From Methanothrix sp. (GTDB lineage Archaea > Halobacteriota > Methanosarcinia > Methanotrichales > Methanotrichaceae): DNA of 64,000 nucleotides. Positions within the stretch are counted from its first letter, which is position 1; each line of letters starts with the position of its first letter. The notes under the pieces are model-generated. The model did not search any database, had not been told where the DNA came from, and saw only the letters and a program-made list of their open reading frames with translations. Shown piece after piece: positions 10,096 to 46,177 of the stretch. The stretch lies in assembly GCA_963682135.1 (NCBI GenBank), contig OY821645.1, forward strand, positions 2,496,001 to 2,560,000. Direction: 5' to 3'. The position numbers were made by a program, and so were the translations under genes.

Positions 10096-10129
10096 AGCAC
10101 AAGTGGTCCTGCATGCATCCGGTGGCCCT

Positions 10130-10490
10130 CATAGAGCCGGGGCGCCATCTTCGGGCCAGGAGGAGGGCAGCTTTGCGGGCTATCTACTATCTGCGCCGCT
10201 TCCAACGAGTGCGATCCCCTGGACCCGCAGACCGTCTACGGCCTCGCCTTCGCCTATATGGAGCTGGGCGACATGGAGCTGGCCCAGAAGCACTTTAGAC
10301 TGGTGCTGGAAATGCAGGCACCCGAGGAGCTGCGCGCTCTGGCCAGGAACGGGCTCTCGAAGATTGCGGCCCGCGAACTCAAGGCCCGTGGACCACGCAT
10401 GGACGCCGTCTTCTATCCGGCTGGGCCATGCGGCTGTTTCGCGGCAAGTCGCAGGAGGAGATCCGGGAGATCACCTTCGAGATCGGCACT
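10130..10490 (+). pseudogene. Fragmented TPR-repeat protein gene
   Basis: Three frames join as 'RAIYYLRR / DPLDPQTVYGLAFAYMELGDMELAQKHF...RMDAVFY / MRLFRGKSQEEIREITFEIG'; ends approximate. Confidence 0.65.
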
Positions 10491-10770
10491 TTTAATTACA
10501 TCGTCTGGCCAAAGCTGAAGGATTTCGTAGTCGCTTTGCTGGAATTCCAGATGCTGCGACTCGTCCCCCGCGAGGCTCTGTTCATCAAGAGCTACGGTAA
10601 CAGTGTGCTCTTCGAGAGCCTGAGGCCACAGGATGCCACGCCTACGTCCTTTTCCGCCTACAACGAGTACGGGATCCTGCTGGGCTTGCTGGACAATTAC
10701 TATACCCTGCCCAAAGGGAGCTTTCTATTGAGGATATCTTCATTCATTCCCTCGACTATTAAAATAGCCC

Positions 10771-11865
10771 TCAGCTCAGATGCCGCCTGAATACATCCTC
10801 ATAAAGCCTCTTTACGTTCTCTCGGGTCTTGGCCATCTCCGGAAAGCCCTGGAACTGCCTGGCCTCTGCCACGTCTTCGGACAGCCGGAGCTTATACTGG
10901 CTGCGTGACAAGAACCAGCCATTTCTGGCATAGTAGCGGGAGAGGTATTCTTGCTCAGTCTGGCCGGGGGTGGGTGTAAAGAGCCCATGCCTTGTCTCCA
11001 GCTCCGCCAGCTCCATCATAGTAGTATAGCCGGACCTGGCAATGATGAACCTGGCCCGGTTCATAAGCTCTGTCTTCTCCTCTGTGGAGACGTAGGAGTG
11101 CACAGTGGTGTGCTCGTCCAATTTTCGATGCGACTCCTCTTGCGGGCTTCCCAGAAGGACCACTTTCTCACCGGGCAGCTTTTGCACCTGTTTCAAGATA
11201 ATCTCCTCCAGGCGGGTCCTCTGCGGCTCGGGACCGGATGCAATTGCCAGAAAGTCCAGATCCCTGTCCACCGCCATTTTTTTGGTGCTGGTCAAAATTC
11301 CGGCGTAATAGACCCTGCGATTAGTGGCATTCACATAGGAGCGACAGAGCTTGCCGCTCAGGTTATTGCTGCCGCCATTGGGATTGATATCCGGCACAAT
11401 CACCCCTTCGAATTTGCTGTGAAAGAAGCTGTTGAAGGGCATGGTCATCATCTCAAATGGATAGAGATAGCTGGGCATGCTGTAGCGAAGCTGGTGAGAT
11501 ATGAAATAGCTGGAGACCTTGTCGCTGTAGACGCTCATGCGGTTGTCGCTGATGATCAGGTCGAATCTATTCTCTGCCAGAATCGCTTCAAACCTTTTTT
11601 TCTCCTGGGCAATAGCCCTCAGAAGGCCAGGAATGCCGGCGACAAATGTTGGCAGAAAGAATCGAGAGTCACTATAGGGCACAGGATAGTCTTTGAAGTG
11701 GATGAAATTACACTGCGGGCATTCTCTCTGCAAGAGGGCCAGAGCATTGCCGCTGGTGCCGACGGTTACCTCATGCCCCCGGCGCAAAAGTTCCTCGATG
11801 AGGGGAATGTCTCGGGTAGCGTGGCCCAGACCCCAATTGAGAGGACTTACAAAAACATGTCCCAT
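10771..11865 (-). CDS. GT-B glycosyltransferase (family 28 C-terminal / MJ1255-like)
   Basis: 'SPLNWGLGHATRD', 'IARSGYTTMMEL', 'PTPGQTEQEYL'; ATG 11865 preferred over 11952. Confidence 0.9.
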   Translation of the reverse strand: MGHVFVSPLNWGLGHATRDIPLIEELLRRGHEVTVGTSGNALALLQRECPQCNFIHFKDYPVPYSDSRFFLPTFVAGIPGLLRAIAQEKKRFEAILAENRFDLIISDNRMSVYSDKVSSYFISHQLRYSMPSYLYPFEMMTMPFNSFFHSKFEGVIVPDINPNGGSNNLSGKLCRSYVNATNRRVYYAGILTSTKKMAVDRDLDFLAIASGPEPQRTRLEEIILKQVQKLPGEKVVLLGSPQEESHRKLDEHTTVHSYVSTEEKTELMNRARFIIARSGYTTMMELAELETRHGLFTPTPGQTEQEYLSRYYARNGWFLSRSQYKLRLSEDVAEARQFQGFPEMAKTRENVKRLYEDVFRRHLS

Positions 11866-12095: not shown

Positions 12096-15000
12096 TCAGG
12101 AAATGACGGCAGTTCCCTTCTCCAGCCGCACCCCGTCTGCTCCGCCCAGCTTGACCACAGCAATTCCGGTAGAGCTGCTCATAGCCACTGTTTCCGCCTG
12201 GAATGCCTGCGGGTCCATATCCACTGAGCTCCAGGCTTCATCTCTTCTCTCCAGCGTCCTTCCCTCTCGGCTCAAGACCAGATCCACCAGATGCACCGCC
12301 GAGACTTCCCCCTGCCTTATGAACGACGTGGGATCAAACTGCAGCAGCATGGTAGCATTGCCGGCAGACAGATCGTCCTCTACGCTCGCTTCTCCCATCT
12401 CGTCACCAGCGTCATCCACAATGATTCCTTGCAGCTCATACCGACCTGGCTTGACTACAGTTACATTTACTCCGATAGCGATGGAAGTGGGGGTCGTCCT
12501 GTTCAGATACTCGTCGGGGAGATAGGCAGCAGGCGGCTGGAACTCCTTTGGCTCCCGGTTAATGATGATATCTTTGTCGAATCTATCGATGTAGCTGCCA
12601 CTTCTATCGTAGAGTATTAGATTTTGAATTCGCAGCGGCCCACACTTGCCGTATCTCCAAATATCGGTACCGCTGGCATTGACCATTATGCTGCCGCTCT
12701 CATTGAGCGCAAATCTGCGATCTATTGCCCCAATCCAGCCGCCGCTGCAATCTACCATCACCCCTTTTAGTTGAAACTCTCCCGGCGCTGTGATGTTCAG
12801 GCCGAAGCCCAAGGAAAGCACATCAAAGAGGCTGTCGTTGTCGAGGTCTATGGCCTCATCTTTTGTGAGACCTGTCAGCCTTGTGCCGGCAATGGTCACA
12901 CTCACCGGAATCTCAAAGGTGTGACTGTCCGAAGAGATTTTTATGTATCCATCCAGCCTGGGAAGCGATGTGCCTTGCGGGATGGTGAGATTGGCCTGTA
13001 CCGTCCCATTAGAGTCACTCTCCAATCGTTTTGGTCCACTGGTTGCGATCCAGCTCCAATTCTCCTCGGCATATTCCTTGATACGAACTTTAAAGGACTT
13101 TCCTTGCAAGGGAACATTGTATCCGTAAACCTTCAGCGTCCAGTTTCCCAACTCCGGATTGCTGATCTCCAAGGGACCGAGATTATCTGCCCCCAAAGCC
13201 GCATTCTCCTCACTGGCAGTGCCCCTGGGATTCTCAAAGACCAGGGCAACCTCGCTCTCGTTATTGCCATCCAAGGAACTCAACTCTGCCGAGATCTTCT
13301 TTGTGCTCTCTGTGACATTTACAGTTTTATTCCATGTCTCTTTGTATCCCACATGACCCTCAGATTCCCAGATAGCAGTATCCTCAATCATCCCGGTGTA
13401 GCTTAGGTTTTGCAGAGACAGACCGAGATTTCTTATGAAAAACTGTGTTTTGCTGCTCGTACCGGATGATGCCGACTCCAGGCTCCAGCGCATAGGAGAA
13501 GTCTCTAACTGAGATCGTTCTACCTGCAGCGTGTAGTTTGCATGGTGAGTTGCATTCTCACTGTGAACGGCAATAAGCCATCTTCCCGAAGAAGGTCCTG
13601 CGATCTTCTTATTGGCCTGCCGGATGATCGTCTCACCAGTATTCTCACCTGTGTAATACTCGCTGGTAGGAGAGAGCAGGAAGAGATCGAGGTTGGTGCC
13701 ATTGTCTTGCTTCCACTTTAAAGATGCTTCAAACTCAGTCGTTCCGGGCTGCATCTTCAGGTAGTAGTAATGCCATTCGCTCCCGTTAAGCGATCCTGTA
13801 CTATTGGCCACGCCCCGAGAGATATTTAAGGGCACGGCCACATTCACACTGATGGGAATGTGCAGAATATTCTCATTTCCGTTTGCGATCTCAATGGTGC
13901 CGTTATAAGTCCCAGGAGCGGTATCCTGCGGCACAGTTATCGATGCCGCAAAGACCTTCTGATCATTGGCCATAACAGTCTTCGGCAAGAGCTGCAGGCT
14001 TACCCAATCAGCCACCTCACCTTGCGCCGACGTTTTAAGGTCTTTTATCTCCTGATTGCAAAAGAACACAAAACGCAAGTTCCAGTCTTCATCACCAGGA
14101 GCTAACGCATATATCTTCTTTTGCGGCCTGTCTGCGCCCGTATCCAGCCCAACGTATACTCCCTTTCCCGCAGGCAGATATGCCCAGCGGCCTGCCGTCC
14201 AGCGATCCGGAATCACTGCGCAGATATTACTATTGTTTGCCAAAAGCTCATAGGAAGAGAGAGCATCCAGCATTCCTGCACCTTGATAGTACTCTTCATA
14301 ACTCTCACCCAGGGTGCTGCTCAGTTTTGCTGCGCCCCTGGTCATGGCCGCCTTGACACCTGCGGCGCTGAGGTTTCCCTCTGCCTGCAAGAGCAGCGCT
14401 GACAATCCCGCAGCCACAGGTGCGGAAAGACTGGTCCCCGACTCGCGAGAATAATAGATGTCCACGGGGCTTGGCCGTTTCACGCTGACCGGCACAATGG
14501 AGATGATATCAACGCCCGGCGCCACAACGTCCGGCTTGATCCGATCGTCCCTGGTGGGCCCCGAACCGGAAAAGCTGGCGATGTGGCCATTGGCATCTGT
14601 GGCTCCCACGGTGATTACCTTTACACCATCACCCGGAGAGTCGATCAAACCTGGCGGCAACGCCAGGACGATTGGTACGAGGAGATAATACACATCCTTT
14701 TTGGCGCTATCAGTCTGGGATAATTTGACGGGAGCCTTGTTCTGGCCAACCTGGCTGCTGGAGGTCCCTGCAACCTGGCCTCCTGTTTCGCTGCTGTTGC
14801 GATTGCCTGCCGCCACGCAGACCACGACACCGTCGCTTGCCGCATTATCGGCAGCCATGGTTATGGGCGGATTGGTCTCGCCCAGGTTTATGCCGCCCAG
14901 GCTGAGGCTGAGGACATCAGCCCCATTGTAAACGGCCCACTCAATTCCCGCTATGATATCCGATACTTTGCCGTCCCCTTTGCCATCTATCACTTTGACA

Positions 15001-15776
15001 CTGATCAGCTTTGCTCCGGGAGCAATTCCCTTGAAGCTACCATTGGAGGCCGCACCTGAGCCGGCAATTATCCCTGCCACCATTGTTCCGTGTCCCAGCA
15101 GATCGTCTGCCGTGATCTCATCCGCCAGGAAATTCTTCTCGGCTACCACCTTGCCGATCAGGTCCGGATGATTTTTGTCGATCCCGGAATCAATTACCGC
15201 CACGGTTATCCCCGTACCATTGATCCCCTTCTCCCAGAGCTTGTCTGCCTTTATAATTTGAGCAGGAGATCTATAACTTTCATAATATCTATCATATCCA
15301 TCCTGCGAGACGGAACCTTCCTTTGATAAATTAAAAGATGAATTTAAGGGTAAATCGAAAGACGAATTCCTATCGGGTGACGATACTTGAGTTATGCCAT
15401 CAAGATAAATTCCCGATACCCATTCGTTTTCCGCCATCTTTCTAATGGCTTTGCAGGTAGCTTCTCCAGCGAGACCGGGTATCAGTTGAAATCGATACTT
15501 GACAGAGAGGTCTTTGGAAATTAGATCATCAGAAATAAGACGGTCTGAGCTACTTGGGGCATCTGCATTGAACATCACAATCACAGGGACCTTTTCCCCG
15601 GGTGTCTTTTCATATTCATTGGCAGAAAGCAATTCTTCAAGCCTGGAATCTATCTTCTGGTCGGCAGCAGAAGAAAGCTTGGCAGCCTGTGCAGAAGATT
15701 CCTGGACGGATGATGAGACCGCCAGAATTATGCATGCAGCCGAAAAAATAATTAAAATATTTCTATTCATATTCAA
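12096..15776 (-). CDS. Secreted S8 subtilase with PPC-like and C-terminal beta-sandwich domains
   Basis: Signal peptide, I9-like propeptide, triad 'VIDSG', 'HGTMVAG', 'SGTSLSAP'. Confidence 0.95.
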   Translation of the reverse strand: MNMNRNILIIFSAACIILAVSSSVQESSAQAAKLSSAADQKIDSRLEELLSANEYEKTPGEKVPVIVMFNADAPSSSDRLISDDLISKDLSVKYRFQLIPGLAGEATCKAIRKMAENEWVSGIYLDGITQVSSPDRNSSFDLPLNSSFNLSKEGSVSQDGYDRYYESYRSPAQIIKADKLWEKGINGTGITVAVIDSGIDKNHPDLIGKVVAEKNFLADEITADDLLGHGTMVAGIIAGSGAASNGSFKGIAPGAKLISVKVIDGKGDGKVSDIIAGIEWAVYNGADVLSLSLGGINLGETNPPITMAADNAASDGVVVCVAAGNRNSSETGGQVAGTSSSQVGQNKAPVKLSQTDSAKKDVYYLLVPIVLALPPGLIDSPGDGVKVITVGATDANGHIASFSGSGPTRDDRIKPDVVAPGVDIISIVPVSVKRPSPVDIYYSRESGTSLSAPVAAGLSALLLQAEGNLSAAGVKAAMTRGAAKLSSTLGESYEEYYQGAGMLDALSSYELLANNSNICAVIPDRWTAGRWAYLPAGKGVYVGLDTGADRPQKKIYALAPGDEDWNLRFVFFCNQEIKDLKTSAQGEVADWVSLQLLPKTVMANDQKVFAASITVPQDTAPGTYNGTIEIANGNENILHIPISVNVAVPLNISRGVANSTGSLNGSEWHYYYLKMQPGTTEFEASLKWKQDNGTNLDLFLLSPTSEYYTGENTGETIIRQANKKIAGPSSGRWLIAVHSENATHHANYTLQVERSQLETSPMRWSLESASSGTSSKTQFFIRNLGLSLQNLSYTGMIEDTAIWESEGHVGYKETWNKTVNVTESTKKISAELSSLDGNNESEVALVFENPRGTASEENAALGADNLGPLEISNPELGNWTLKVYGYNVPLQGKSFKVRIKEYAEENWSWIATSGPKRLESDSNGTVQANLTIPQGTSLPRLDGYIKISSDSHTFEIPVSVTIAGTRLTGLTKDEAIDLDNDSLFDVLSLGFGLNITAPGEFQLKGVMVDCSGGWIGAIDRRFALNESGSIMVNASGTDIWRYGKCGPLRIQNLILYDRSGSYIDRFDKDIIINREPKEFQPPAAYLPDEYLNRTTPTSIAIGVNVTVVKPGRYELQGIIVDDAGDEMGEASVEDDLSAGNATMLLQFDPTSFIRQGEVSAVHLVDLVLSREGRTLERRDEAWSSVDMDPQAFQAETVAMSSSTGIAVVKLGGADGVRLEKGTAVIS

Positions 15777-32518: not shown

Positions 32519-33577
32519 TCATTTTATCATATCTATCTTAGCATGCTTCTGGCCTATCTGCTTTTCTCTTCGCGGCCCGGATTGCCGGTACTGTGGGGAC
32601 GCCAGAACCTGGGCCGATTTCACCCCTGTAATTATGGCCATCAGCCTCACCTTTCCTGTAAAATCGGGACGAATCCTCGCTCCCCAGATGACATTGGCCT
32701 TGGGGTCCAACTCCTGGGTTAGGGCCCCGGCGATGGCGGCTGCCTCTTTCATGGTCATATCCGGCCCGCCGGTCATGTGCAGAAGGCAGGCTGTGGCTCC
32801 GCGATAGTCCACATCGAGCAGCGGATTTTTCAAGGCTGTGCGCACGATCTTCTCAGGGCTGCTCTTCATCTTGCCCTCACCCACAAACATGAAGGATGCG
32901 CCACCGGAGCTCATGATGGTGCAAACATCGGCAAAGTCCAGGTTGATGAGAGAAGGACTTGTCAGGGTCTCGCAGATGCCCTGCACGATCTCGGCGATGA
33001 TCTGGTCGACAACAAAAAAGGCCTGCTGGAAAGGCAGATGAGGTGCGCATTCCAGGAGGCGGTTGTTGTCCATGACAATTGATGTATCGGCATAGCCAGA
33101 GAGCGCCTCCAGTCCCTCCTCTGCTACAAAGATGCGTGCCCTCTCCAGGTGGAAAGGTGTGGTTACCATGGCCACTACAATTGCGCCCCGTTCTTTGGCC
33201 AGACGGGCCACGACCGGAGCCGATCCCGTGCCCGTGCCCCCTCCCAGGCCCGCGATCACAAAGACCAGGTCGGCCCCCCGCAGCATGCTCTCCAGCTCGG
33301 CTGCCGCCATCTCCGCCGCCTTTCGGCCCACCTCGGGATCGCCGCCCGCGCCCATGCCCCTGGTGAGCGTCTGGCCGATGAGAATCTTCTCATCCGCCTG
33401 GGCAGTGTTTAGATGCTGGTTGTCTGTGTTGACGGCCACGGTCTTTGCGCCTGTTAGGCCCATCCTGGCCAGCCGGCTCACAGTGTTATTGCCTGCTCCC
33501 CCGCAGCCGACGACCAGGATCTTGGGCATGCCAAAACCCTCTTCATATTCTTTGGACTCACGTAGATCTGACTGCAA
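32519..33577 (-). CDS. ftsZ: Cell division GTPase FtsZ
   Basis: 'VGCGGAGNN', 'NTD', 'GLGGGTGTG', 'INLDFADV'. Confidence 0.97.
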
Positions 33578-34126: not shown

Positions 34127-34537
34127 ATGTCAATATTACGGGGCGCAGATGATCTGGCACAGTTCATCGCCGCGAACTACTCGGGCCGCGTGGTCGAGGT
34201 AGGGGCAGGCTTTGCCGCGGAGGTAGCCTTAGGCCTGCAAGCGCGCGGCCTGGATGTGGTGCTCACCGATAAAGAGGAGCGGCTCCTGGGCTGCCTGCGG
34301 GTGGAGAAGGATGACATATTCTTGCCCCGCCTGGAGCTGTACCGGGGAGCAAGCCTGATCTACTCCATCCGCCCGCCTCTGGAGATGCAACTGGCCATGG
34401 GCCTGCTCGCTTTGCGGATCGGCGCGGATGTCCTGGTCCGGCCGCTGATGGATGAGGTGACTATCCTACAGGGCTTTGCCCGGCGGCTGGTCAATAGCGG
34501 GGAGGCGAGGTTCTACCTGTTTAAGGCGAGGGCGTAG
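34127..34537 (+). CDS. UPF0146 family protein
   Basis: 'VVEVGAG', 'DDIF.P....Y..A.LIYSIRPP.E'. Confidence 0.9.
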   Translation: MSILRGADDLAQFIAANYSGRVVEVGAGFAAEVALGLQARGLDVVLTDKEERLLGCLRVEKDDIFLPRLELYRGASLIYSIRPPLEMQLAMGLLALRIGADVLVRPLMDEVTILQGFARRLVNSGEARFYLFKARA

Positions 34538-34706: not shown

Positions 34707-35126
34707 TCACGGGTTTTTTCTGCTCCTTCCCAGCACCATCTGCTTGGTGGCCCTATCCGACTCAATATTGCGCCGGCAGACCGGGCAGACCCGGATCCAC
34801 TCCAGGCCTTCGGAGTCTTTCTGCAAATTGACAGGAATAACGGACTCAATCCTGCGCAGCATGGGCTCTGTGGCATAGCGCGATTTGCAGATCTTGCAGG
34901 CTACCATATCAAAGGAAATATCCGGCTCAGGTACGGCCTCATCGAAGGCCACCAAGGTTAGAGCATGGCCTGGGCAAAACTCTACGCATAGATCGCACTC
35001 CTCTTTGCACCTCTTCCAGTGGATGCTGCGCTTCTCTTCCGTCTCGATACGGACAATATTTTGACTGGGACAGACATTGGAGCAAGACCGGCAGCCCAGG
35101 CATAGACTGGTATCAACTTTGATCAT
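34707..35126 (-). CDS. 4Fe-4S ferredoxin-like protein
   Basis: CxxCxxCxxxCP, 'CKEECDLCVEFCP', plus CxxC...CPxC. Confidence 0.9.
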   Translation of the reverse strand: MIKVDTSLCLGCRSCSNVCPSQNIVRIETEEKRSIHWKRCKEECDLCVEFCPGHALTLVAFDEAVPEPDISFDMVACKICKSRYATEPMLRRIESVIPVNLQKDSEGLEWIRVCPVCRRNIESDRATKQMVLGRSRKNP

Positions 35127-35560
35127 CTTCTACCTCCCTGGGCAGCAGCCCGAGCAGCGCGTGCCCGCGTCCGGCGAGACGCCAGCTCAAAATCAGTGGA
35201 TAGAGCATTGGCAGGACAGGTTTTAACACAGGTGGGCTCATCTTTGCCCTCACAGAGATCACACTTATGAGCAATCTTATCCGTCCAGACCACTCCGAAG
35301 GGACAAGCCAACTGGCAGAGACCGCATCCGGTGCACTTTTCCACATCAAAAGCCGTGCGTTCTCCCTCTTTATGCAGAGCGCCGCTAAAGCAGGCGATAG
35401 TGCAGTTTGCCTCCTCACAATGATGACAGAAAAGGGGAACGGAGGCATAGTCTCCTACAAAATGCACATTAATGTGTCCGCTACCAGCATGCACTCTCTG
35501 GCAGGCCACCTCGCAAGAACGGCAGCCAATACATCTGCTGATGTCAATATAAACGGGCAT
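35123..35560 (-). CDS. Four-cluster Fe-S electron-transfer subunit (HycB/DmsB-like)
   Basis: 'CIGCRSCEVAC', 'CHHCEEANC', 'CTGCGLCQLACP', 'KCDLC...CVKTCP'. Confidence 0.92.
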   Translation of the reverse strand: MPVYIDISRCIGCRSCEVACQRVHAGSGHINVHFVGDYASVPLFCHHCEEANCTIACFSGALHKEGERTAFDVEKCTGCGLCQLACPFGVVWTDKIAHKCDLCEGKDEPTCVKTCPANALSTDFELASRRTRARAARAAAQGGRR

Positions 35561-37603
35561 TTAATCCCTCCGGGAAATCTTGCAGGCCGAGACCTTGAAC
35601 TCCGGTATCTTGGCATCCGGATCAGTTATATCTGCGGTAAGTATATTGGTTCCAGGGAAATGGAAGGGCATGAATACCACACCCTTTTTTACTCTATCGG
35701 TGAGACGGGCATAGGCCTGGGTTTCACCTCGGGGCGTAGTTATGGTCACCTCATCTCCATCGGCCACCTTCAACCTTAACGCATCATCAGTGTTGATCTC
35801 CACATATAAATCAGGTTCTCGCTCTATTAGAGAGGGGCTTCTCCGGGTCATGGACCCTGCGTTGTGGTGCACGGCAACCCGTCCGGTGGTCAGGATTAAG
35901 GGATAATCCCAGCTGGTGTCCTCTGCCGCCGGACGATATAGAACCGGAACAATAGCGGCGCGTCCCTCGGCCAGCTTGAAGCCTGCGCTGTGAAGTATGG
36001 GCGTTCCCGGATGATCGATGCTGGGGCAGGGCCAAACCAGACCAAATCCGCCCAGCCGTTCCCGGGTTATGCCGGCATATTGCGGAACGAATCGGTTGAT
36101 CTCCGCCAGAACACTGGCCGCATCAGGATAGAAAAGATCTATTCCCAGGCTCCTGCCAACTTTGCATACGATCTCCAGATCAGATAGAGCCGCCCCCGGT
36201 GGCTCAATGGCTTTATGGCTCCACTGCACACGCCTTTCCGTATTGGTGAAGCTTCCTTCCTTCTCCGCCCAGGCAGCTGCCGGTAAAACAACATCAGCAA
36301 GCTGAGAAGTCGCCGTCATGAATATATCCTGCACTACCAAGAAATCCAGGCTCTCCAGAGCTTTCCGAGTATGATCACTGCTGGGATCGGAGTTGGCCGG
36401 ATCTTCGCCCACAATATACATGGCTTTAACCTCTCCAGAGGCGGCTGCATCGATCATCTCCGTGGCTGTAAGGCCAGGTCCCAGCGGCAGGCATTCCGCC
36501 CCCCAGGCAGAAGAGAAGTAATTGATGGTATTTGGATCGTCCGCCTTTTTGTAGCCGGGATAAAATTCAGCCAGCGCCCCCATATCACAGGCGCCCTGCA
36601 CATTGTTCTGACCGCGCAAAGGCATGACCCCTGTGCCCGGCTTTCCCAGATGCCCACAGATGAGAGCCAGGTTGGAAATTGCCTGCACATTGTCCGTGCC
36701 CGTGCTGTGCTGCGTAATCCCCATGGAATAGAGAATACAAGAGGCTGGTGATATGGCGTAAGAGCGCGCCGCTCTCACAATATCGCCTGCTGCCACTCCT
36801 GTGATCTCTGCCGCCTTTTCCGGAGTGTAATCTTTGAGTGATTCTCGATACTCTTCAAAACCCCTGGTCCATTGGGAGATGTAATCAATATCAATCAGGC
36901 CCTCTTTGATTATGACATGAGCCATGCCGTTCAAGAGAGCTACATCAGTTCCTGGCTTAAGTTGCAGGAAGACATCCGCCATCCAGGAGGTATGGGTCGC
37001 GCGCGGATCGGCTACGATTACTACCGCACCTACATCCTTAGCCCTGTGAATCCAACGAGTGATAACAGGATGATTTTCTGCTAAATTTGATCCGATGATG
37101 AATATGCACCGAGAGTTGGCGATATCCGGTATGGGATTGGTCATTCCTGCTGCACCCAGGGTACGGTTCAATCCCACCACGGAAGGAGCGTGACACAACC
37201 TTGCGCAGTTGTCCACATTGGGCGTGCCCAAAAGGCGAGCCAATTTCTCGATCAGATAATTCTCCTCGTTGCTGCATTTGGAAGAGGAAAGAATGGCAAT
37301 ACTGTCGGGACCATAATTCTTGACGGCATCGCATAGTCCCCGAGCCACCAGCTGCATAGCCTCCTCCCAGGATATCCTGGAAAAGCCTTCTCCTTTTCTC
37401 TTGAGGGGAGAATTAAGCCTCTCCCGGTGGTAGAGGATCTCCAAAGCCGCGTTTCCTTTAGAGCACAAAGCCCCCTCACTCACAGGATGGTTGGGCATAT
37501 ATTCTATCCCGATGGCGCGCTCTTTCTCGGCTTCAATGAATAATCCGCAGCCCGCACCACAATATGGACAGACGGTTGGAACAAGCACTTTTGTCATCTT
37601 CAT
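35561..37603 (-). CDS. fdhA: Formate dehydrogenase alpha subunit (Mo/W-bisPGD, Cys ligand)
   Basis: 'CPYCGAGC', 'LCSKG', 'CARLCHAPS', 'PLRGQNNVQG', 'KIPEFK'. Confidence 0.92.
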   Translation of the reverse strand: MKMTKVLVPTVCPYCGAGCGLFIEAEKERAIGIEYMPNHPVSEGALCSKGNAALEILYHRERLNSPLKRKGEGFSRISWEEAMQLVARGLCDAVKNYGPDSIAILSSSKCSNEENYLIEKLARLLGTPNVDNCARLCHAPSVVGLNRTLGAAGMTNPIPDIANSRCIFIIGSNLAENHPVITRWIHRAKDVGAVVIVADPRATHTSWMADVFLQLKPGTDVALLNGMAHVIIKEGLIDIDYISQWTRGFEEYRESLKDYTPEKAAEITGVAAGDIVRAARSYAISPASCILYSMGITQHSTGTDNVQAISNLALICGHLGKPGTGVMPLRGQNNVQGACDMGALAEFYPGYKKADDPNTINYFSSAWGAECLPLGPGLTATEMIDAAASGEVKAMYIVGEDPANSDPSSDHTRKALESLDFLVVQDIFMTATSQLADVVLPAAAWAEKEGSFTNTERRVQWSHKAIEPPGAALSDLEIVCKVGRSLGIDLFYPDAASVLAEINRFVPQYAGITRERLGGFGLVWPCPSIDHPGTPILHSAGFKLAEGRAAIVPVLYRPAAEDTSWDYPLILTTGRVAVHHNAGSMTRRSPSLIEREPDLYVEINTDDALRLKVADGDEVTITTPRGETQAYARLTDRVKKGVVFMPFHFPGTNILTADITDPDAKIPEFKVSACKISRRD

Positions 37604-37607
37604 CCCT

Positions 37608-38432
37608 TTAGTAAGCGTAGAGATTGCTGTAGGGCCTCTTCGACCTGGGCCTGAGCCTGAAGAACTGAGATGTCATTATTTCTTTCTGGCTCTTGCCAAT
37701 TTCTGGAAAGCGCTCCACGAACCTGGAGATATATCGCTCCAATACGGCCCTGTCGGCCTCATCTATGGGAGAGACGTCCACCTGTCCGCCCAACTGATGC
37801 GGCTCTACATGGCCTCGCAGATAGATCACGCCACCATGCATGCCTGTGCCTATGAAGTTGGCTTTGTGAGTCTGGCCGAGCAGGTCAAGGATTATAACAA
37901 TTCCGCCGGACATGTACTCGCCCAAAAAGTCCTGCGTATGGCCCCCTACTACCAGAACAGGCTTCTTCTCCTCATACTCCTTCATGTGCAGAGCTGTTCT
38001 ATAGCCGCAATTATCCCGCACATAAATCTCGCCCCCCCGCATGGAAAAACCCAGGACATCTCCGGCCCTTCCTTTCACGACTATCTCCCCGTCATCCATT
38101 GTGTTTCCCACGCCATCCTGGGCATTACCATGCACAGTTATCTTATGGCCATAGAGAAAGGCTGCCAGGTCATTACCGGGAGTGCCGAATATCTCGATCT
38201 CCATTTTAAGATGCTCGGGTGTGTAGAGGCGGGTGCCGATGTACCTCTGGCCGAAGACATTTCTGATGTTGACCTTTTTTACGCCGGAGAGCATCAAATT
38301 CCTGATCCTTTCATTTAGTTCTTTTGTCTTAAGGTCTGTGGCATCGATCTCTACAGCAATTATCCTCTCATCAACTTGATCTGCCTCGATACTGGTTTGG
38401 GATGCAATAGCGTTCGCCATTTCCGGCCTCAC
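37608..38432 (-). CDS. gltB: Glutamate synthase GXGXG subunit (GltB3)
   Basis: 'GQRYIG', 'GTPGNDL', 'GNAQDGVGNTM', 'FLGEYMSGG'. Confidence 0.92.
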   Translation of the reverse strand: MRPEMANAIASQTSIEADQVDERIIAVEIDATDLKTKELNERIRNLMLSGVKKVNIRNVFGQRYIGTRLYTPEHLKMEIEIFGTPGNDLAAFLYGHKITVHGNAQDGVGNTMDDGEIVVKGRAGDVLGFSMRGGEIYVRDNCGYRTALHMKEYEEKKPVLVVGGHTQDFLGEYMSGGIVIILDLLGQTHKANFIGTGMHGGVIYLRGHVEPHQLGGQVDVSPIDEADRAVLERYISRFVERFPEIGKSQKEIMTSQFFRLRPRSKRPYSNLYAY

Positions 38433-39943
38433 TCTCCCGCGCCCTTGATCCCCAGAACATCAAGCTCCCACTCGTATAGCCCCACGCCCCGCAGATGGTC
38501 CCGGTTGCCGCGCAGGCTTTCTAAGGCGTTGATGCCCATGCCGCCCAGCATCTCGGCAATCTCATGCGACCAGGCTGATATGAGATTGGACAGCCTCTGC
38601 GAGGCGATATCCACATTCAACCGGCCTGACAGGCGCGGATCCTGGGTGCATATTCCCCAGTTGCATTTACCAGTATAGCATTTCTGGCAGAGGGTGCATC
38701 CCATGGCGATCAATGCTGCAGATCCGATATAGACGGCATCTGCACCTAAGGCTATGGCCTTGATTACGTCGCTGCTGCATCTAATTCCACCAGCGGCAAT
38801 GATGGAGCATCTGTTTCTGATGCCTTCACTACGCAGGCGTCGATCCAATGATGATATGGCAAGCTCTGTAGGTATGCCCACATTGTCCCGGATGGCTTTA
38901 GGAGCTGCTCCCGTTCCGCCTCGCAGGCCGTCAATGGCGATTATGTCCGCACCGGCGCGCACTATTCCCGAAGCTATAGCGGCAAAGTTATGCACGGCAG
39001 CGATCTTGACGGATATGGGCTTTTCGTAGTTGGTGGCTTCCTTCAGAGCTGAGATCAGCATGGAAAGATCTTCGATAGAGTAGATATCATGATGCGGAGC
39101 TGGTGAGATGGCATCTGTACCCATGGGAATCATGCGTGTCTTTGCCACAGCAGCTGAGACCTTCTCGCCTGGTAAATGGCCGCCGATTCCTGGTTTTGCT
39201 CCCTGACCTACCTTGATCTCCACTGCCTGAGCGCAGTTCAGGTACTCGGCATCAATGCCGAAGCGGCCTGAAGCCACCTGCACAATGGCGCATCTTCCAA
39301 ACTCCTCTCTCATCTCGCGGGGAAGGCCTCCTTCTCCGGTGTTGAAGTAGGTTCCTGACCTACAGGCTGCCGTCGCCAGGGAGCGGAAGGCGTTGTAGCT
39401 TATGGCTCCGTAGGACATGGCCGAGAAAAGAATGGGCGTTTGTACCATCAGATTTGGCGAGAGATTGGTCTTGATCTCTACATCTCCATCCTTTACTGAG
39501 ATATCCATTATGTCGGGTTTAGCCCCCAGGAAGGTGCGCAGCTCCATCGGTTCTCGTAAGGGATCGATGGACGGGTTGGTGACCTGAGAGGCATTGAGCA
39601 CAATGTGGTCCCAGTAGATGCGAAATGGCTTGTCGTTACCCGATCCGGTAAGGATCACTCCACCAGTCTCGGCCTGTTTCTTCAGATCCTCCAGCTTCTC
39701 GCGTGACCATGAAGCATTGGGTCGGTAGAACGAAGGTGTGGGCCGGACTACGATGGCATTTTTAGGACAGAAGACGACACATCTCTGGCACCCGGCGCAC
39801 TTGTAGTCTTCGGATATCAGCCGATCAGCTACCGGATCGTAGGTGTGGGTGCCAAAAGCACACTGCCTTTCGCAACCTCTACACTGGCCGCATTTCTCTT
39901 CGTCCCTTATGATCTGAAACTCTGGAAAGACGAATGATTTCAT
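38429..39943 (-). CDS. gltB: Glutamate synthase FMN subunit (GltB2) with N-terminal 2x[4Fe-4S]
   Basis: 'AMSYGA', 'NTGEGG', 'QVASGRFG', 'KVGQGAKPGIGGHLPGEKV', 'CTLCQKCYTGKC'. Confidence 0.96.
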   Translation of the reverse strand: MKSFVFPEFQIIRDEEKCGQCRGCERQCAFGTHTYDPVADRLISEDYKCAGCQRCVVFCPKNAIVVRPTPSFYRPNASWSREKLEDLKKQAETGGVILTGSGNDKPFRIYWDHIVLNASQVTNPSIDPLREPMELRTFLGAKPDIMDISVKDGDVEIKTNLSPNLMVQTPILFSAMSYGAISYNAFRSLATAACRSGTYFNTGEGGLPREMREEFGRCAIVQVASGRFGIDAEYLNCAQAVEIKVGQGAKPGIGGHLPGEKVSAAVAKTRMIPMGTDAISPAPHHDIYSIEDLSMLISALKEATNYEKPISVKIAAVHNFAAIASGIVRAGADIIAIDGLRGGTGAAPKAIRDNVGIPTELAISSLDRRLRSEGIRNRCSIIAAGGIRCSSDVIKAIALGADAVYIGSAALIAMGCTLCQKCYTGKCNWGICTQDPRLSGRLNVDIASQRLSNLISAWSHEIAEMLGGMGINALESLRGNRDHLRGVGLYEWELDVLGIKGAGE

Positions 39944-41085
39944 TGCAAAACCTTCCTCGTGCTATTTAATTCGCCGATAACCGGTTCTCCACCATTGGGC
40001 GTCCAGACCCGATCAAGATTTGGCGAAATAAGTCTGATGGATGCTTCCTCTGAGGAGAGGTAGAACATATCTCCTCTTGTAGCAGCAGTAATAGGCCGAA
40101 GCCTGATTCTGTCTGTAAGGCCGATCATCCTGTTCGTCTGGCCGATGATTATTGCAAAAGGCCCGTTCATAAGCAGGGGGGCATATACCATCCTCAGTGT
40201 GGTGAGCAGTCTCTTCTCCGACTCATTCATGCGGTCGATGGCATTCCAGATGGGCGGGGCGAGAATTTTGGCCACAATCTCAATGGGGAGATTCTGCCTT
40301 CTCATAAGCAGGTCTGCTGCATAGGCTATGACCTCTGTATCAGTCTGCAAGGTGCAGGCATAGCCGTACATCTCCAGATACCATCGATTGGTACCGTAAG
40401 AAGAGATCTCGCCGTTATGGACGATGGTCGTATCCAGGAGACTGAAGGGATGAGCTCCGCCCCACCAAGCCTGAGTGTTGGTGGGAAATCGACCGTGCAC
40501 CGTCCAGGTATAGGCTTTGTAGAGCTCATCCAGCATGAAGTACTCTCCGATATCCTCGGGATAACCCACGCCTTTGAAGCAGCCCATATTCTTGCCGGAC
40601 GAGAAGACATGAGCATTCTCGATCCTGGTGTTCACCCACATGATCTTGCTCACGACGTAATCTTCGTCAGAGAGCAATGCCTCTTCACCCTGCTTTTTGG
40701 GAAGGATGAAGTAGCGCCAGACCAGAGGAGGATCGCTTATTGTTGCCACATCTCTATGAGGGATCTCTTCATCGAAAACCACATCGAAGCTCCGGCAGAG
40801 AAAGTCATCCAGCTCCTTTTTTGCAGATACTTTATCCTGATAGCTCTTGCCGGTGAACATAAGGTGGAATGCATAGTAATCCTTGTAATGCGGGTATATG
40901 CCGTAGGCTGCAAACCCCCCACCCAGACCATTGCCGCGAACATGCATATTGGCAATGGCTATCATGACGCCTTCTCCGGTGAAGCGCTCACCCTCTTTGT
41001 TCATGGCACCGAAGATAGAGCAGGCACAGATCTCTTTATTGTATAGCTCCCTTCTTATCCTTGGCATAGTAATCTTGGACTCCAT
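39940..41085 (-). CDS. gltB: Glutamate synthase glutamine amidotransferase subunit (GltB1)
   Basis: Ntn Cys 'ACSIFG', 'RGNGLGGG', 'HGRFPTNT', 'HNGEI', 'TDTE'. Confidence 0.94.
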   Translation of the reverse strand: MESKITMPRIRRELYNKEICACSIFGAMNKEGERFTGEGVMIAIANMHVRGNGLGGGFAAYGIYPHYKDYYAFHLMFTGKSYQDKVSAKKELDDFLCRSFDVVFDEEIPHRDVATISDPPLVWRYFILPKKQGEEALLSDEDYVVSKIMWVNTRIENAHVFSSGKNMGCFKGVGYPEDIGEYFMLDELYKAYTWTVHGRFPTNTQAWWGGAHPFSLLDTTIVHNGEISSYGTNRWYLEMYGYACTLQTDTEVIAYAADLLMRRQNLPIEIVAKILAPPIWNAIDRMNESEKRLLTTLRMVYAPLLMNGPFAIIIGQTNRMIGLTDRIRLRPITAATRGDMFYLSSEEASIRLISPNLDRVWTPNGGEPVIGELNSTRKVLQ

Positions 41086-42669: not shown

Positions 42670-43160
42670 ATCACTAGCCTCCAAAAGCCAAAGGGCCATG
42701 TTGATTATTTATAGATATTTAAGAGCAGGTCTTAAAAGTTATGAAAAATTATGATCAGGGAATCTATCAACCCATAATTGAATAATTTTGATTTCTAAGA
42801 ATACGGGAGTTCGCCGGCATCAAGAATGGTCGCAATTATCAAGTAATATTTAGTAATACAAAGAGTAAATTTAACATTGGCATACTCAGTGATAAATTGC
42901 TACACCAATTAAAAATTACAGATGTACCTACTAATGCACATCTGTTTTCATTTGCTTGATGGAGTTAAGTGGTTAGTTAAGATCTATTTAATATATAAAT
43001 TTGTCGATTAGGTATGATTATATTGACACTCAGATTGAATAAATAACATGTAAAATGAAATTTATAAAAAATTATTCTGTTTATTCATACTAGAAAAGGA
43101 TTAAATATTACTATGTACAAATTGGCTTCGTTTAATAGCGAGTGTAGAAGAGGGATTGAT

Positions 43161-44150
43161 ATGAGACATTATATCGTAGGAATAGGATCAGTGCTAATTC
43201 TGCTTCTAATAACGGCAGGCGTTTGCTGGGCCACGGACTTCGACTTCAACCCGGGCCAAGAGTCAGTGAAGCATAAGCATGACATGACAAGTGATGTCAG
43301 CGGAACAGGTTATACTATGGAATATATGAAGGTCAATACCAATAACCTATCCATGCTGGAGTATGCTCACGGAAGCGGCACCATGGACTATGCAGATATA
43401 CTCTATGACGAACAGAAGTCGGTTGTCAGCTCAGATAATTACTACTGGATAATTGATCTGACAACAGGACAATGGAAGAAAAAGTATGCAAGCGCCAACA
43501 GCGCGATCACATATACCAAGCAATACGACAACATCCAGTCCCCAGTCGCATTTGCCTATGGAACAGGATGGTATGCTTCTCACCCCGTGGGATACAATTC
43601 ACTATTAAAGGACAAAAATGAGGCCAAGAGCTATCAGGAGTCAGCCTCAATGCATAGGCAAGTGGAATATGCGCGAGCCCTCAAGGGCGATATAGCTATT
43701 GAGATCAACTGCACCGGACCCAATGATGTGGCTGATGGCAAAGGTTTTCTGAAGATGAAGATTGACGACGATGTAACCCAGGGTACGCTGCATATTGGAG
43801 AGCTCTTATCTATGCCCATGAAAAAGACCAATACACCAAAGTTCACGAACAAACAGGGCTGGAAGAGCAGTATAATTGAGATTGATAGCAACTATGTGGG
43901 AGACTTCCAGGTCCAGAAGACTATGACCCTTGACATAAAGAAATCCAAATCTACCTGGGGAGAAGACTGGCTGCCCTGCTGCAGCGGCGGCTTCTTTGAC
44001 GTTCCTTCCAAGAATTTCAATGCGGATTTCGGCAGCCAGAAGGGCATATTCGACTGCACCTGCCGCAACACCTCTATATCCACAATGAAGCCGGCCTGGA
44101 ACGCCAGCATGGCTCAATTCCCCACGGAGAAGTACAAGAAGATACCGTGA
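43161..44150 (+). CDS. Secreted beta-rich hypothetical protein with C-terminal 'DWLPCCSGG...FDCTC'
   Basis: Signal peptide from ATG 43161. Confidence 0.8.
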   Translation: MRHYIVGIGSVLILLLITAGVCWATDFDFNPGQESVKHKHDMTSDVSGTGYTMEYMKVNTNNLSMLEYAHGSGTMDYADILYDEQKSVVSSDNYYWIIDLTTGQWKKKYASANSAITYTKQYDNIQSPVAFAYGTGWYASHPVGYNSLLKDKNEAKSYQESASMHRQVEYARALKGDIAIEINCTGPNDVADGKGFLKMKIDDDVTQGTLHIGELLSMPMKKTNTPKFTNKQGWKSSIIEIDSNYVGDFQVQKTMTLDIKKSKSTWGEDWLPCCSGGFFDVPSKNFNADFGSQKGIFDCTCRNTSISTMKPAWNASMAQFPTEKYKKIP

Positions 44151-44310: not shown

Positions 44311-45699
44311 TCAGGCTGTGTATCCCAGCTTCTTTGCCTTTTCCAGAGCATCATTTGCCTCCGGATCGCGGCCGGCCAATTTAAGTGCATTGCTCTTATT
44401 GACCCATGCAGGCATGCATTTGGGATCAATCTTTATGGCCATATCAAAGCTTTTGAGCGCCTCGACATAATCCTCGTACCCCATTATCTGAGCAATTCCC
44501 CGGTTATTCCAGGGCTCCAGATAATTGGCATCCAGCTCGATGGCCTTATCATAGGCTTTTATTGCCTCGCTGAACAGGTCCAACTTGGCCAGAGACAGCC
44601 CCAGGCGATTCCAGCACACGGCGCATTCGGGATGAAGTTCTAAAGATCTTCTCAGAACAGCAACGGCTCCGCTGTAATTTTCCATTTCATTGAGAACGAT
44701 GGCTTTATTATAATAAAATCCAATCTCCTCAGGCTCTATTTCAATGGCCCGGTCGAACATGCCCAGAGACATATTGTAGTCTTTCAATTCTGCATAGGCA
44801 AGAGCCTCTCCGTTCCAGGCAGCCGCATTTGCAGGGTCCAGCTCGAGGCTCTTGTTGTAGGCGGCGATGCAGTCGCTGTATCTTCCCGACAGGCGCAAAG
44901 CCAGTGCATTGCTCCGCCAGGCATCGGCGTTCTTCGGCTCAATCTTGAGAGATTTCTCGAATGCCTCGATGGACTCAGAGTATCTGCTCAGTGCAAAGAG
45001 AGCCTCCCCTTTCTTTACCCAGGCAAGAGCATTTATCGGATTCAAATCAGTGACATTATTGAATGCATCGAAGGCATCGCTAAAATCTCCCCGGTTTGTG
45101 AAAGCCAGACCCAGGTTGAACCAGGCGTCTTCATTTTCAGAGTCCAGATCTACCGTCTTTTTCAGGGCTTGCAAGGATTCATTATTACTGCCCAAATCAG
45201 CACATATGAGGGCCTTGCTGTACCATGCACCCGCCAGTTTCCTATCCAGCTCAATGGCTTTATCGAGGGCCAGCAGAGATTCGTTATACTTTCCCTGGTT
45301 TGCCAGAGCAATTCCCCTGCCATACCAGGATAAAGCGGCCCTGGGATGCAGCTTAATCGCTTCGTCAAAGGCTGCAATTGACTCATTATAAAGGCTCAAG
45401 TGTGCATAGGCAAGACCTTTGGCGTACCAGGCCTCCCCCAATTTAGGGTCCAAGCGGATTGACTCATTGTAAGCAGAGAGTGCATCATCATAACTTTCCA
45501 TGTCGCTCAACGCCTGGCCTTTCTTCATCCAGGAGGTGGCATTTGTGCCGTCCAATTGGATGGATTTATTATAGCAATCCAGGGCGATATCAAAGGATTG
45601 AATCTGCATGAATTCATCTCCCTTTTGCTGCCAATAGTTTGCAGTGTACTCTTTTCCGCAAGCAAACATGAAGTTTGATATCAGGATAAGTAGAATCAA
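44311..45699 (-). CDS. TPR-repeat protein with N-terminal signal
   Basis: About 12 TPRs (W..KG..L...A...Y..A..L.P). Confidence 0.93.
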   Translation of the reverse strand: MILLILISNFMFACGKEYTANYWQQKGDEFMQIQSFDIALDCYNKSIQLDGTNATSWMKKGQALSDMESYDDALSAYNESIRLDPKLGEAWYAKGLAYAHLSLYNESIAAFDEAIKLHPRAALSWYGRGIALANQGKYNESLLALDKAIELDRKLAGAWYSKALICADLGSNNESLQALKKTVDLDSENEDAWFNLGLAFTNRGDFSDAFDAFNNVTDLNPINALAWVKKGEALFALSRYSESIEAFEKSLKIEPKNADAWRSNALALRLSGRYSDCIAAYNKSLELDPANAAAWNGEALAYAELKDYNMSLGMFDRAIEIEPEEIGFYYNKAIVLNEMENYSGAVAVLRRSLELHPECAVCWNRLGLSLAKLDLFSEAIKAYDKAIELDANYLEPWNNRGIAQIMGYEDYVEALKSFDMAIKIDPKCMPAWVNKSNALKLAGRDPEANDALEKAKKLGYTA

Positions 45700-45754: not shown

Positions 45755-46177
45755 CTAGAGTTCTTTGCCCAGCGAAGTCGTCGTCAATTTGACGTGCTTA
45801 ACACCCTTCAAGGACATCATCCTCTCAGCTGCTTTTCTCACATCCTGCCCCTCGCCCCTGAGCACTACGACCTCCAGACAATTATCATGATCCAAATGGA
45901 CGTGCAGACTGGACTGAATTAGGCCGCCAAATTCATGTTGGATCTCAGTAAGGTTATCTTCCAGGCCTCTTTGAGAATGGGCATAGACAATGGTAATCAC
46001 ACCCACCCGTTCTCCTTGGACATCGCTCATCCATTCGAAGTTTACAATGTAACTTCTTATGGCATCCCTGACACCTTCTGAGCGCGAAGAATAGCCTCGA
46101 TGCAGGATGATTTCATCAAACTTATTCAGCAGATTTTCTGGCAGCGAGATGCCTACCCTCATTAATTCTTGGTCCAT
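45755..46177 (-). CDS. nikR: Nickel-responsive regulator
   Basis: RHH domain 'RVGISLP...GYSSRSE..RDAIR'; Ni site 'HVHLDHDNC'. Confidence 0.97.

Follow-up and report, generated by a model that had tools for sequence, protein, structure and literature searches.

The window analysed here is a stretch of 64,000 nucleotides (nt), bases 2496001-2560000 of the single-contig genome of a Methanothrix sp. (3,043,341 bp, 50% G+C, 99.87% complete). Its minus strand carries, from 41085 to 34707, a six-gene unit in the order gltB1, gltB2, gltB3, fdhA, Fe145, Fe139, in which the genes of an archaeal glutamate synthase (GOGAT) are followed by those of a formate dehydrogenase catalytic subunit (FdhA) and of two small iron–sulphur (Fe-S) proteins of 145 and 139 amino acids (aa). 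As judged from sequence, the operon combines the archaeal GltB1-GltB2-GltB3 with the complete soluble electron-input arm of formate hydrogenlyase (FHL). The genes, with their positions in the window, are as follows.

42699-41335, minus strand: glnA, type I glutamine synthetase, the upstream neighbour (TIGR00653, 548 bits against a cut-off of 429)
41085-39940, minus strand: gltB1, subunit with the glutamine amidotransferase domain in the three-piece GOGAT of archaea (GATase_2, PF00310, E 3.3e-13)
39943-38429, minus strand: gltB2, synthase subunit with flavin mononucleotide (FMN) and an N-terminal 2x[4Fe-4S] ferredoxin domain (Glu_synthase, PF01645, 477 bits)
38432-37608, minus strand: gltB3, GXGXG beta-helix subunit (PF01493, 108 bits)
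37603-35561, minus strand: fdhA, catalytic subunit of a cytoplasmic, Cys-type formate dehydrogenase with Mo/W-bis(pyranopterin guanine dinucleotide) (TIGR01591, 822 bits)
35560-35123, minus strand: Fe145, 145-aa HycB-like 4x[4Fe-4S] electron-transfer subunit (16 Cys)
35126-34707, minus strand: Fe139, 139-aa HycF-like subunit, with motifs for two [4Fe-4S] clusters and an invariant CxxC...CxxC site

A preliminary description of this DNA had read the gltB1-gltB2-gltB3-fdhA-ferredoxin genes as one unit, and their content, order and tight junctions are as it claimed, all five junctions from gltB1 to Fe139 being 4-nt overlaps or gaps of 0-4 nt. The gaps flanking fdhA, 4 nt after gltB3 and 0 nt before Fe145, can both be read in the sequence. 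So can the ATGA overlaps reported for gltB1/gltB2 (39940) and Fe145/Fe139 (35123), but the third, at 38429 between gltB2 and gltB3, is a GTGA overlap with a GTG start for gltB3, whose first ATG lies 10 nt past the gltB2 stop. The unit had also been placed directly downstream of glnA, which is indeed the upstream neighbour but lies 249 nt away. Because this spacer contains a short stem, T-runs and then an AT-rich stretch, glnA is probably a transcription unit of its own, and the region would thus comprise two units, glnA alone and gltB1 to Fe139. T-runs are found only 3' of glnA and 3' of the Fe139 stop, and the co-transcription of gltB1 to Fe139 is suggested by the spacing of the genes.

Two RNA runs, both wetland metatranscriptomes (0.21 and 0.17 of sampled words, with contigs of only 150-280 nt), were consulted on this point and proved too fragmentary to speak for or against it. 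Among the 32 of 569 assembled pieces that were listed, one from RNA run X2 spans the gltB2/gltB3 junction, and none of the RNA pieces listed spans gltB3/fdhA or fdhA/Fe145. From a further run, X7, one piece (37248-37731) spans gltB3/fdhA and another (35121-35563) ends three bases into fdhA; since this run is not classed as RNA or DNA, these pieces say nothing on transcripts. With regard to regulation, the nitrogen-operator motif GGAA-N6-TTCC, which is known from Methanococcus and may not be that of this host, occurs 30 times against 32 expected, with no match in the spacers before gltB1 or glnA.

The glutamate synthase and its electron-donor slot

The GATase_2, Glu_synthase and GXGXG domains lie on three consecutive genes, the arrangement of the archaeal three-subunit GOGAT, and orthologues of gltB1 hold the same position in relatives at 72-95% identity. 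The gltB2 of the operon is the sole GltB2 gene of the genome, and the operon hence encodes its only GOGAT. The Fer4 matches of GltB2 span residues 11-64, and all 26 aligned GltB2 sequences, those of a Methanosarcinaceae-like sister family included, have the eight cysteines at positions 18, 21, 24, 28, 49, 52, 55 and 59. By this alignment the N-terminal 2x[4Fe-4S] domain is the norm for the archaeal enzyme and no addition, and the preliminary description, which had called these clusters extra, was mistaken on this point.

A domain scan found no GltD or FrhB gene in the operon, which therefore has neither the small subunit of an NAD(P)H-dependent GOGAT nor the FrhB-like subunit that stands alongside gltB1-3 in the F420-dependent enzyme. 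The earlier statement that both are missing is correct for the operon but not for the genome, which holds three FrhB-family genes (at 0.61, 0.67 and 3.02 Mb, none of them beside an fdhA) and a single Fer4_20/GltD-like gene (988198-988521). The best genomic match to the GOGAT-type FrhB-like gene of relatives has 34% identity and lies 1.86 Mb away.

The donor gene that is absent here is present in the sister family. In the Methanosarcinaceae-like genomes, the gene that follows gltB2/gltB3 is FrhB-like in four of the five loci read, in the order (glnA-)gltB1-gltB2-(gltB3)-FrhB-like; in one of these four (L016), glnA lies downstream on the opposite strand and gltB3 was not called. A passage of Kaster et al. 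(2011; PMC3087415) names this FrhB-like protein as 'subunit 4' of an F420-dependent GOGAT, while noting that the enzyme 'remains to be proven by purification', and a passage of PMC9012536 also mentions an F420-dependent GOGAT with an FrhB-like subunit. The formate dehydrogenase genes and their two partners thus fill the slot that the FrhB-like F420 subunit of GOGAT holds in relatives.

A formylmethanofuran dehydrogenase, with an FwdC-like GXGXG protein and an FwdB-like catalytic subunit, was considered as another identity for these genes and ruled out: GltB3 reaches 67 bits against the FwdC cut-off of 131 and FdhA 90 bits where the FwdB model requires 328, and an FwdA is missing.

The formate dehydrogenase

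FdhA exceeds the curated TIGR01591 cut-off of 666 bits over residues 10-676 of 680. Its best solved relatives are F420-Fdh (9t1s_L) and then FdhF of the hydrogen-dependent carbon dioxide reductase (HDCR; 7qv7_S, 646 bits). The preliminary description had stated that the catalytic Cys-His, Arg and Lys are retained, and each of these residues aligns with the solved formate dehydrogenases: the Cys-His with the selenocysteine-His (X-H) of 9t1s_L and the C-H of 7qv7_S, the Arg within a motif, PLRGQNNVQG, that is identical in the three proteins, and the Lys after the fourth cluster cysteine. A nitrate reductase reading was rejected on account of this Fdh-type Cys-His and of scores far below the cut-offs for NasC (534 against 1100) and NasA. 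The ratio of non-synonymous to synonymous substitutions (dN/dS), taken over four pairs with unsaturated dS of up to ~2, is 0.07-0.10 for fdhA, similar to that of GltB1, with 0.03-0.06 for gltB2 and 0.15 for gltB3. FdhA is thus predicted to be catalytically intact and under purifying selection where it is kept.

The genome encodes four further FdhA paralogues, and none of its five fdhA genes has an FdhB (FrhB-family) gene next to it. One is an orphan of 59% identity, called F2 (G000:C1:2938721-2940760). Two are tandem NuoG-type genes (916 and 917 aa) that share a locus with a PyrK-like gene and the genome's only GltD-like gene (G000:C1:980108-989553); this locus resembles that of an NAD(P)-linked formate dehydrogenase, and it includes at 980108-981022 what we take, by eye and not by a domain scan, for a FocA/FdhC-like formate channel gene. 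The fourth presumably has AsrA/AsrB-like neighbours, likewise as read by eye.

The electron-transfer arm

The preliminary description had placed a 4x[4Fe-4S] ferredoxin behind fdhA, and Fe145 fits this, with sixteen cysteines that are invariant in 29 sequences and a HycB-like sequence. Its best solved relatives are HDCR HycB4 (7qv7_B, E 4.6e-24), a hydrogenase Fe-S subunit, FHL HycB (7z0s_B) and HDCR HycB3, and its best NCBIfam matches are AegA/YgfT (82 and 76 bits, far under the cut-offs). Fe139 has 12 conserved cysteines, of which C9, C12, C15, C51, C77, C80, C114 and C117 are invariant in 37 of 37 sequences, and C19, C40, C44 and C47 occur in 90% or more of the 37. Its AlphaFold2 model (predicted local distance difference test score 90.5) has E. 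coli HycF as best fold match over the whole length (7z0t_F, E 5.8e-8, template-modelling scores 0.72/0.74), against template-modelling scores of 0.30-0.37 for NuoI chains; against the PRK12387 sequence model Fe139 scores 42 bits, below the cut-off of 204.

On these sequence and fold matches to FdhH, HycB and HycF, the trio fdhA-Fe145-Fe139 is predicted to be the FdhH-HycB-HycF electron arm of formate hydrogenlyase without its hydrogenase, no hydrogenase catalytic subunit being encoded within the operon. Bacteria bear out this identity, since the nearest relatives of the trio there sit in FHL-type operons: five of six bacterial loci with FdhA-, Fe145- and Fe139-like genes have HycE-, NuoB- or HyfB-like genes alongside, as identified with Pfam. 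With regard to hydrogenases in the group, a passage of PMC12072023 reports for one cultured relative no hydrogenase genes except an FrhB gene.

In the route that these parts would allow, formate would be oxidised at the Mo/W centre of FdhA, and the electrons would pass from the [4Fe-4S] cluster of FdhA through the four clusters of Fe145 to those of Fe139. From there they would enter the two N-terminal [4Fe-4S] clusters of GltB2 and move through its C-terminal cluster to FMN, where 2-iminoglutarate, formed from 2-oxoglutarate and glutamine-derived ammonia, would be reduced to glutamate. Delivery to GltB2 might take place in a docked complex, or Fe139 and Fe145 might act as dissociable carriers; that GltB2 is contacted, and in which direction the electrons run, is what we infer from the genes. 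A complex prediction for GltB2, Fe145 and Fe139 (alignments of 26, 29 and 37 rows) scored 0.00 in both runs, a value that bears neither way on binding.

Linkage in the Methanotrichaceae

The linkage was surveyed in 105 Methanotrichaceae genomes, an FdhA orthologue being defined by at least 65% identity. GltB2 is found in 83 of them, an FdhA orthologue in 58 and Fe139 in 92. The FdhA orthologue lies at most 2.5 kb from GltB2 on the same contig in 47 of the 83 GltB2-bearing genomes, which belong to five genera, and the tight junctions are retained across these genera. The 47 linked genomes are kin, so their cases are not independent. Apart from 13 genomes described below, the remaining GltB2-bearing genomes comprise three broken by contig ends, five with an FdhA of 70-72% identity on another contig and 15 without an orthologue. 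Named records, which are largely the same species set, give a similar picture, with gltB upstream in 28 of 32 loci that carry an FdhA orthologue, three loci cut by contig ends and one with a decayed GOGAT; the named public records nearest to this genome come from Methanothrix, Methanocrinis and 'Methanotrichaceae archaeon' assemblies. The complete operon is present, among others, in the records of a Candidatus Methanocrinis natronophilus strain (L096) and of several Methanothrix harundinacea assemblies (L083, L090 and L094). The preliminary description had held that fdh genes unlinked in relatives would speak against a coupling. The fdhA-GOGAT linkage does recur, in 47 of 83 genomes, but in part of the Methanotrichaceae the genes are indeed unlinked.

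Several arrangements among the relatives weigh against a dedicated supply of formate electrons to GOGAT. In 13 of the 83 GltB2-bearing genomes, Fe139 lies 1.3-2.7 kb from GltB2 with no FdhA orthologue. Eight of these 13 were read by tblastn and show the order gltB123-Fe145-Fe139 without fdhA, with fdhA remnants in two (L060 and L061), and gltB123 stands alone in six of the loci read. The reverse loss is seen in genome G104 (99% complete; L022:7843-12756, the same locus as L085), where glnA, two gltB3 fragments and an intact fdhA-Fe145-Fe139 are left and gltB1 and gltB2 are gone. Eight of the loci read keep an intact Fe145-Fe139 without any GOGAT gene, and in loci of the harundinacea/Methanocrinis type a second, F2-type fdhA follows Fe139 after ~40 nt. 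Because the pair persists without GOGAT and a second fdhA adjoins Fe139, Fe145 and Fe139 may be simply the beta and gamma subunits of Fdh isoenzymes. Each part, GOGAT, fdhA and the Fe-S pair, can live without the others. Of 1227 long FdhA relatives, the best 120 include no GltB-FdhA fusion. Finally, the fdhA-GOGAT link is confined to one family, and a single rearrangement passed on by descent might account for most of the 47 cases. Since many relatives run the same GOGAT without fdhA, FdhA would be an optional input to GOGAT and not an obligatory subunit.

These loci invite a second explanation, in which the trio is a self-contained formate:ferredoxin oxidoreductase or CO2 reductase that trades electrons with the ferredoxin pool, GOGAT is fed by free ferredoxin through the N-terminal clusters of GltB2 and the operon reflects co-expression at most. 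Such an enzyme could oxidise formate from the surroundings or supply the formate that goes into purines and ribonucleotides; according to a passage of PMC3087415, Fdh is required in methanogens that cannot grow on formate, as a source of formate for purines and for the class III ribonucleotide reductase, which counts in favour of this role. The free separation of GOGAT, fdhA and the Fe-S pair in relatives is what this explanation would predict, as are the six loci with GltB123 alone, the trio that stands alone in G048 (L025) and the operons in which the pair is joined by a second fdhA. Conversely, the four other FdhA paralogues could serve biosynthesis, and the position of the trio in the GOGAT donor slot, with 0-4 nt spacing and in 47 genomes, would be left unexplained. 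Moreover, in every other context of the trio that entered the weighing, a catalytic partner shares the operon, namely hydrogenase modules in bacteria and cooS-cooF in archaea, which suggests that the trio acts as a plug for whatever catalytic partner it is encoded with. We regard an independent module of this kind as a credible possibility that falls somewhat short of being favoured.

Some of the relatives' loci show further features. G104 amounts to a natural GOGAT knockout that retains the Fdh arm. In the eight loci with the pair only, fdhA is absent or a C-terminal remnant (L042 and L045), and L048 has glnA in three tblastn pieces. In six of these eight, L042-L047 (G015, G076, G086, G012, G077 and G095), glnA, gltB123 and fdhA are deleted and a PyrK-like gene immediately precedes Fe145-Fe139 in the same orientation; the encoded protein (NAD-binding, with a DHODB Fe-S domain) shares 87-92% identity with the copy that G011 has upstream of glnA. 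In the genome analysed here the PyrK-like gene lies at 2795248-2796108, away from the operon. The loci L081, L083, L086 and L090 (Methanothrix / M. harundinacea; ~8930-11400) form a unit of seven genes in which a single Fe-S pair is flanked by two fdhA genes, the F2-type fdhA lying ~40 nt past Fe139 in three of them and ~490 nt past it in L083.

Origin of the trio

Outside GOGAT operons, cooS-cooF-fdhA-Fe145(-Fe139) clusters were found in G042, G111 and a Methanosarcinaceae-like genus. In a maximum-likelihood tree of 25 FdhAs, the GOGAT-linked sequences are nested within the CooS/CooF-linked ones with support of 83-100 at the relevant forks, and for this reason the trio appears to be a module relocated from cooS-cooF to gltB3. 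Among the 389 genomes that the phylum sample holds outside the family, only three have Fe139-like genes, in each case in a cooS context.

This history raises the question of whether the present adjacency carries any functional meaning, as the trio might have moved once, in an ancestor, from behind cooS-cooF to behind gltB3, with fdhA now decaying in many lines. The nesting of the GOGAT-linked FdhAs in the tree agrees with such an accident, and so do the repeated loss and pseudogenisation of fdhA, the restriction of the link to one family and the presence in this genome of a cooS-cooF without its trio (2565425-2567821), ~28 kb from the operon. It would not account for the strong purifying selection on the FdhAs that are retained (dN/dS 0.07-0.10 at dS up to ~2), nor for the tight junctions across five genera, which leave no space for internal promoters, and we consider a purely historical adjacency improbable.

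The cooS clusters are of interest in their own right. The order cooS, cooF-like, fdhA, HycB-like, HycF-like, with no hydrogenase, is seen at L023:7541-13101 (G042), L030:6869-11709 (G111) and L074:8419-13850 (G324), and also in L055, L056 and L057, so that several genera of the Methanotrichaceae and one Methanosarcinaceae-like genus are represented. On paper, such a cluster links a carbon monoxide (CO) dehydrogenase to a formate dehydrogenase and would turn CO and water into formate.

Two further groups of FdhA relatives were looked at. Methanocaldococcus was set aside as support for the linkage, since 2.4 kb with nadE and a DUF2254 gene separate its selenocysteine-type fdhA from the gltB1-3 genes downstream on that strand, which makes it a neighbourhood and not an operon. 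In L139:5378-13940 (Methanocaldococcus sp. 16A, CP187551.1) and also in L128, genes for a carbonic anhydrase, fdhA, nadE, DUF2254, gltB1, gltB2 and gltB3 lie on one strand; the fdhA frame of L139 is split where a selenocysteine codon would fit, as read by eye, and no FdhB lies beside it. The best 120 of the 1227 long FdhA relatives (P0002-P0120; ~1350 aa, many from Chloroflexota/Dehalococcoidia) are mostly fusions with a GltD-like module (Fer4_20 and Pyr_redox_2). Formate dehydrogenases are thus often joined to this module, which bacterial GOGAT has as its small subunit.

A possible membrane partner for Fe139

The relationship of Fe139 to HycF and NuoI allows for another partner. HycF reportedly contacts NuoB/NuoD-like subunits in the FHL structure, and Fe139 could in principle dock the Fdh arm on the membrane Fpo complex in place of FpoI, which would give an energy-conserving, hydrogenase-free, FHL-like formate:methanophenazine oxidoreductase. 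The match of Fe139 to HycF over its whole length is compatible with this, as is the retention of the pair in 92 of 105 genomes, with GOGAT or without it. Against this stand the soluble cooS-cooF contexts, which argue for soluble partners, and the absence of linkage to a NuoD-like locus: the single NuoD-like gene of the genome (2785412-2786134), which we take for FpoD, lies 0.25 Mb from the operon. Docking on Fpo seems to us very unlikely.

The case for formate-dependent glutamate synthesis

Taken together, a specific supply of electrons from formate to GOGAT is the best single reading of the operon, though a tentative one, and the autonomous module is nearly as likely. The preliminary description had proposed a formate-dependent GOGAT outright. 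In its favour are the tight unit, a GOGAT that is the only one of the genome, the trio's place in the donor slot, an intact FdhA under selection, the linkage in 47 of 83 genomes, the kinship of the trio with the established electron wires of HDCR and FHL, the catalytic partners that it has in its other operons and a putative formate channel gene elsewhere in the genome, but the link is found in one family and the parts separate freely. A stronger version, in which the operon would encode a fourth class of GOGAT beside the NAD(P)H-, ferredoxin- and F420-dependent ones, that is, a formate-dependent enzyme with the FHL arm docked on the N-terminal clusters of GltB2 and the hydrogenase swapped for GltB, is in our view doubtful.

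Methanothrix is among the main acetate-consuming methane producers and is counted as an obligate acetate user. A passage of Nobu et al. (2020; PMC7382037) calls formate use in Methanothrix controversial and proposes that another fdhA cluster, with hdrABC, feeds methanogenesis. The operon joins this question of formate use with that of the electron donor of the archaeal split GOGAT. No published link between fdh and a GOGAT operon was found in the literature searched, subscription journals and supplements being outside its scope. All parts belong to known families, and a GOGAT with a swapped electron-input subunit (GltD, FrhB-like) is a known theme; the combination with the FHL arm was not found in print.

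If this stronger reading holds, Methanothrix would make dedicated use of syntrophic formate for nitrogen assimilation, and the FHL arm would be a portable plug for acceptors as unrelated as hydrogenase, CO dehydrogenase and GOGAT. A real coupling would amount to both a new glutamate synthase variant and a new use of the FHL arm. Should the coupling not be real, the operon would still hold a clear hydrogenase-free FHL arm under selection in a methanogen. An FdhH-HycB-HycF arm that occurs without hydrogenase and with different partners from operon to operon also bears on the modular evolution of redox enzymes.

Neighbouring genes in the window

Upstream of glnA lie genes for a 462-aa tetratricopeptide repeat (TPR) protein (44311-45699, minus strand) and a NikR-type nickel regulator (45755-46177, minus strand), together with a divergent 345-aa gene that adjoins glnA (43113-44150, plus strand) and is without a Pfam match. 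Just downstream of the operon, a UPF0146 gene (34127-34537, plus strand) converges with Fe139 and is followed by ftsZ (32519-33577, minus strand). Elsewhere in the window, a 1226-aa protein (12096-15776, minus strand) has a subtilase domain (Peptidase_S8) in its first 500 residues and no Pfam match in the remainder.

Comparison with known systems

The nearest relatives of the trio are found in the cooS-cooF-fdhA-hycB-hycF clusters, where the partner is an Ni-CO dehydrogenase with its CooF ferredoxin and not GOGAT. HDCR (FdhF-HycB3-HycB4-HydA2; 7QV7) offers a likeness in design, as a soluble complex in which small proteins of the HycB type connect a formate dehydrogenase with a second catalytic subunit. 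In the operon described here, however, this second module would be the flavoenzyme GOGAT instead of an [FeFe] hydrogenase, and one of the two small proteins is HycF-like. E. coli AegA/YgfT share an N-terminal HycB-like four-cluster domain that is fused to a GltD-like flavoprotein, and their uric acid utilisation is named formate-dependent in a work (Iwadate and Kato 2019) cited in a passage of PMC8097209. These bacterial proteins are fusions without a GltB and serve another acceptor enzyme.

FdhA, Fe145 and Fe139 correspond one-to-one to FdhH, HycB and HycF of E. coli FHL (FdhH-HycB-HycF-HycG-HycE; 7Z0S/7Z0T), whereas neither the HycE/HycG hydrogenase nor the membrane subunits are encoded alongside and GOGAT is the neighbour. 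With the F420-dependent GOGAT (FGltS), the operon shares the order of the three GltB genes, their place downstream of glnA, the 2x[4Fe-4S] domain of GltB2 and an electron-input gene right after gltB3. The difference lies in that last position, where the FrhB-like gene is replaced by fdhA and the HycB-like and HycF-like genes, so that the donor would be formate and not F420H2.

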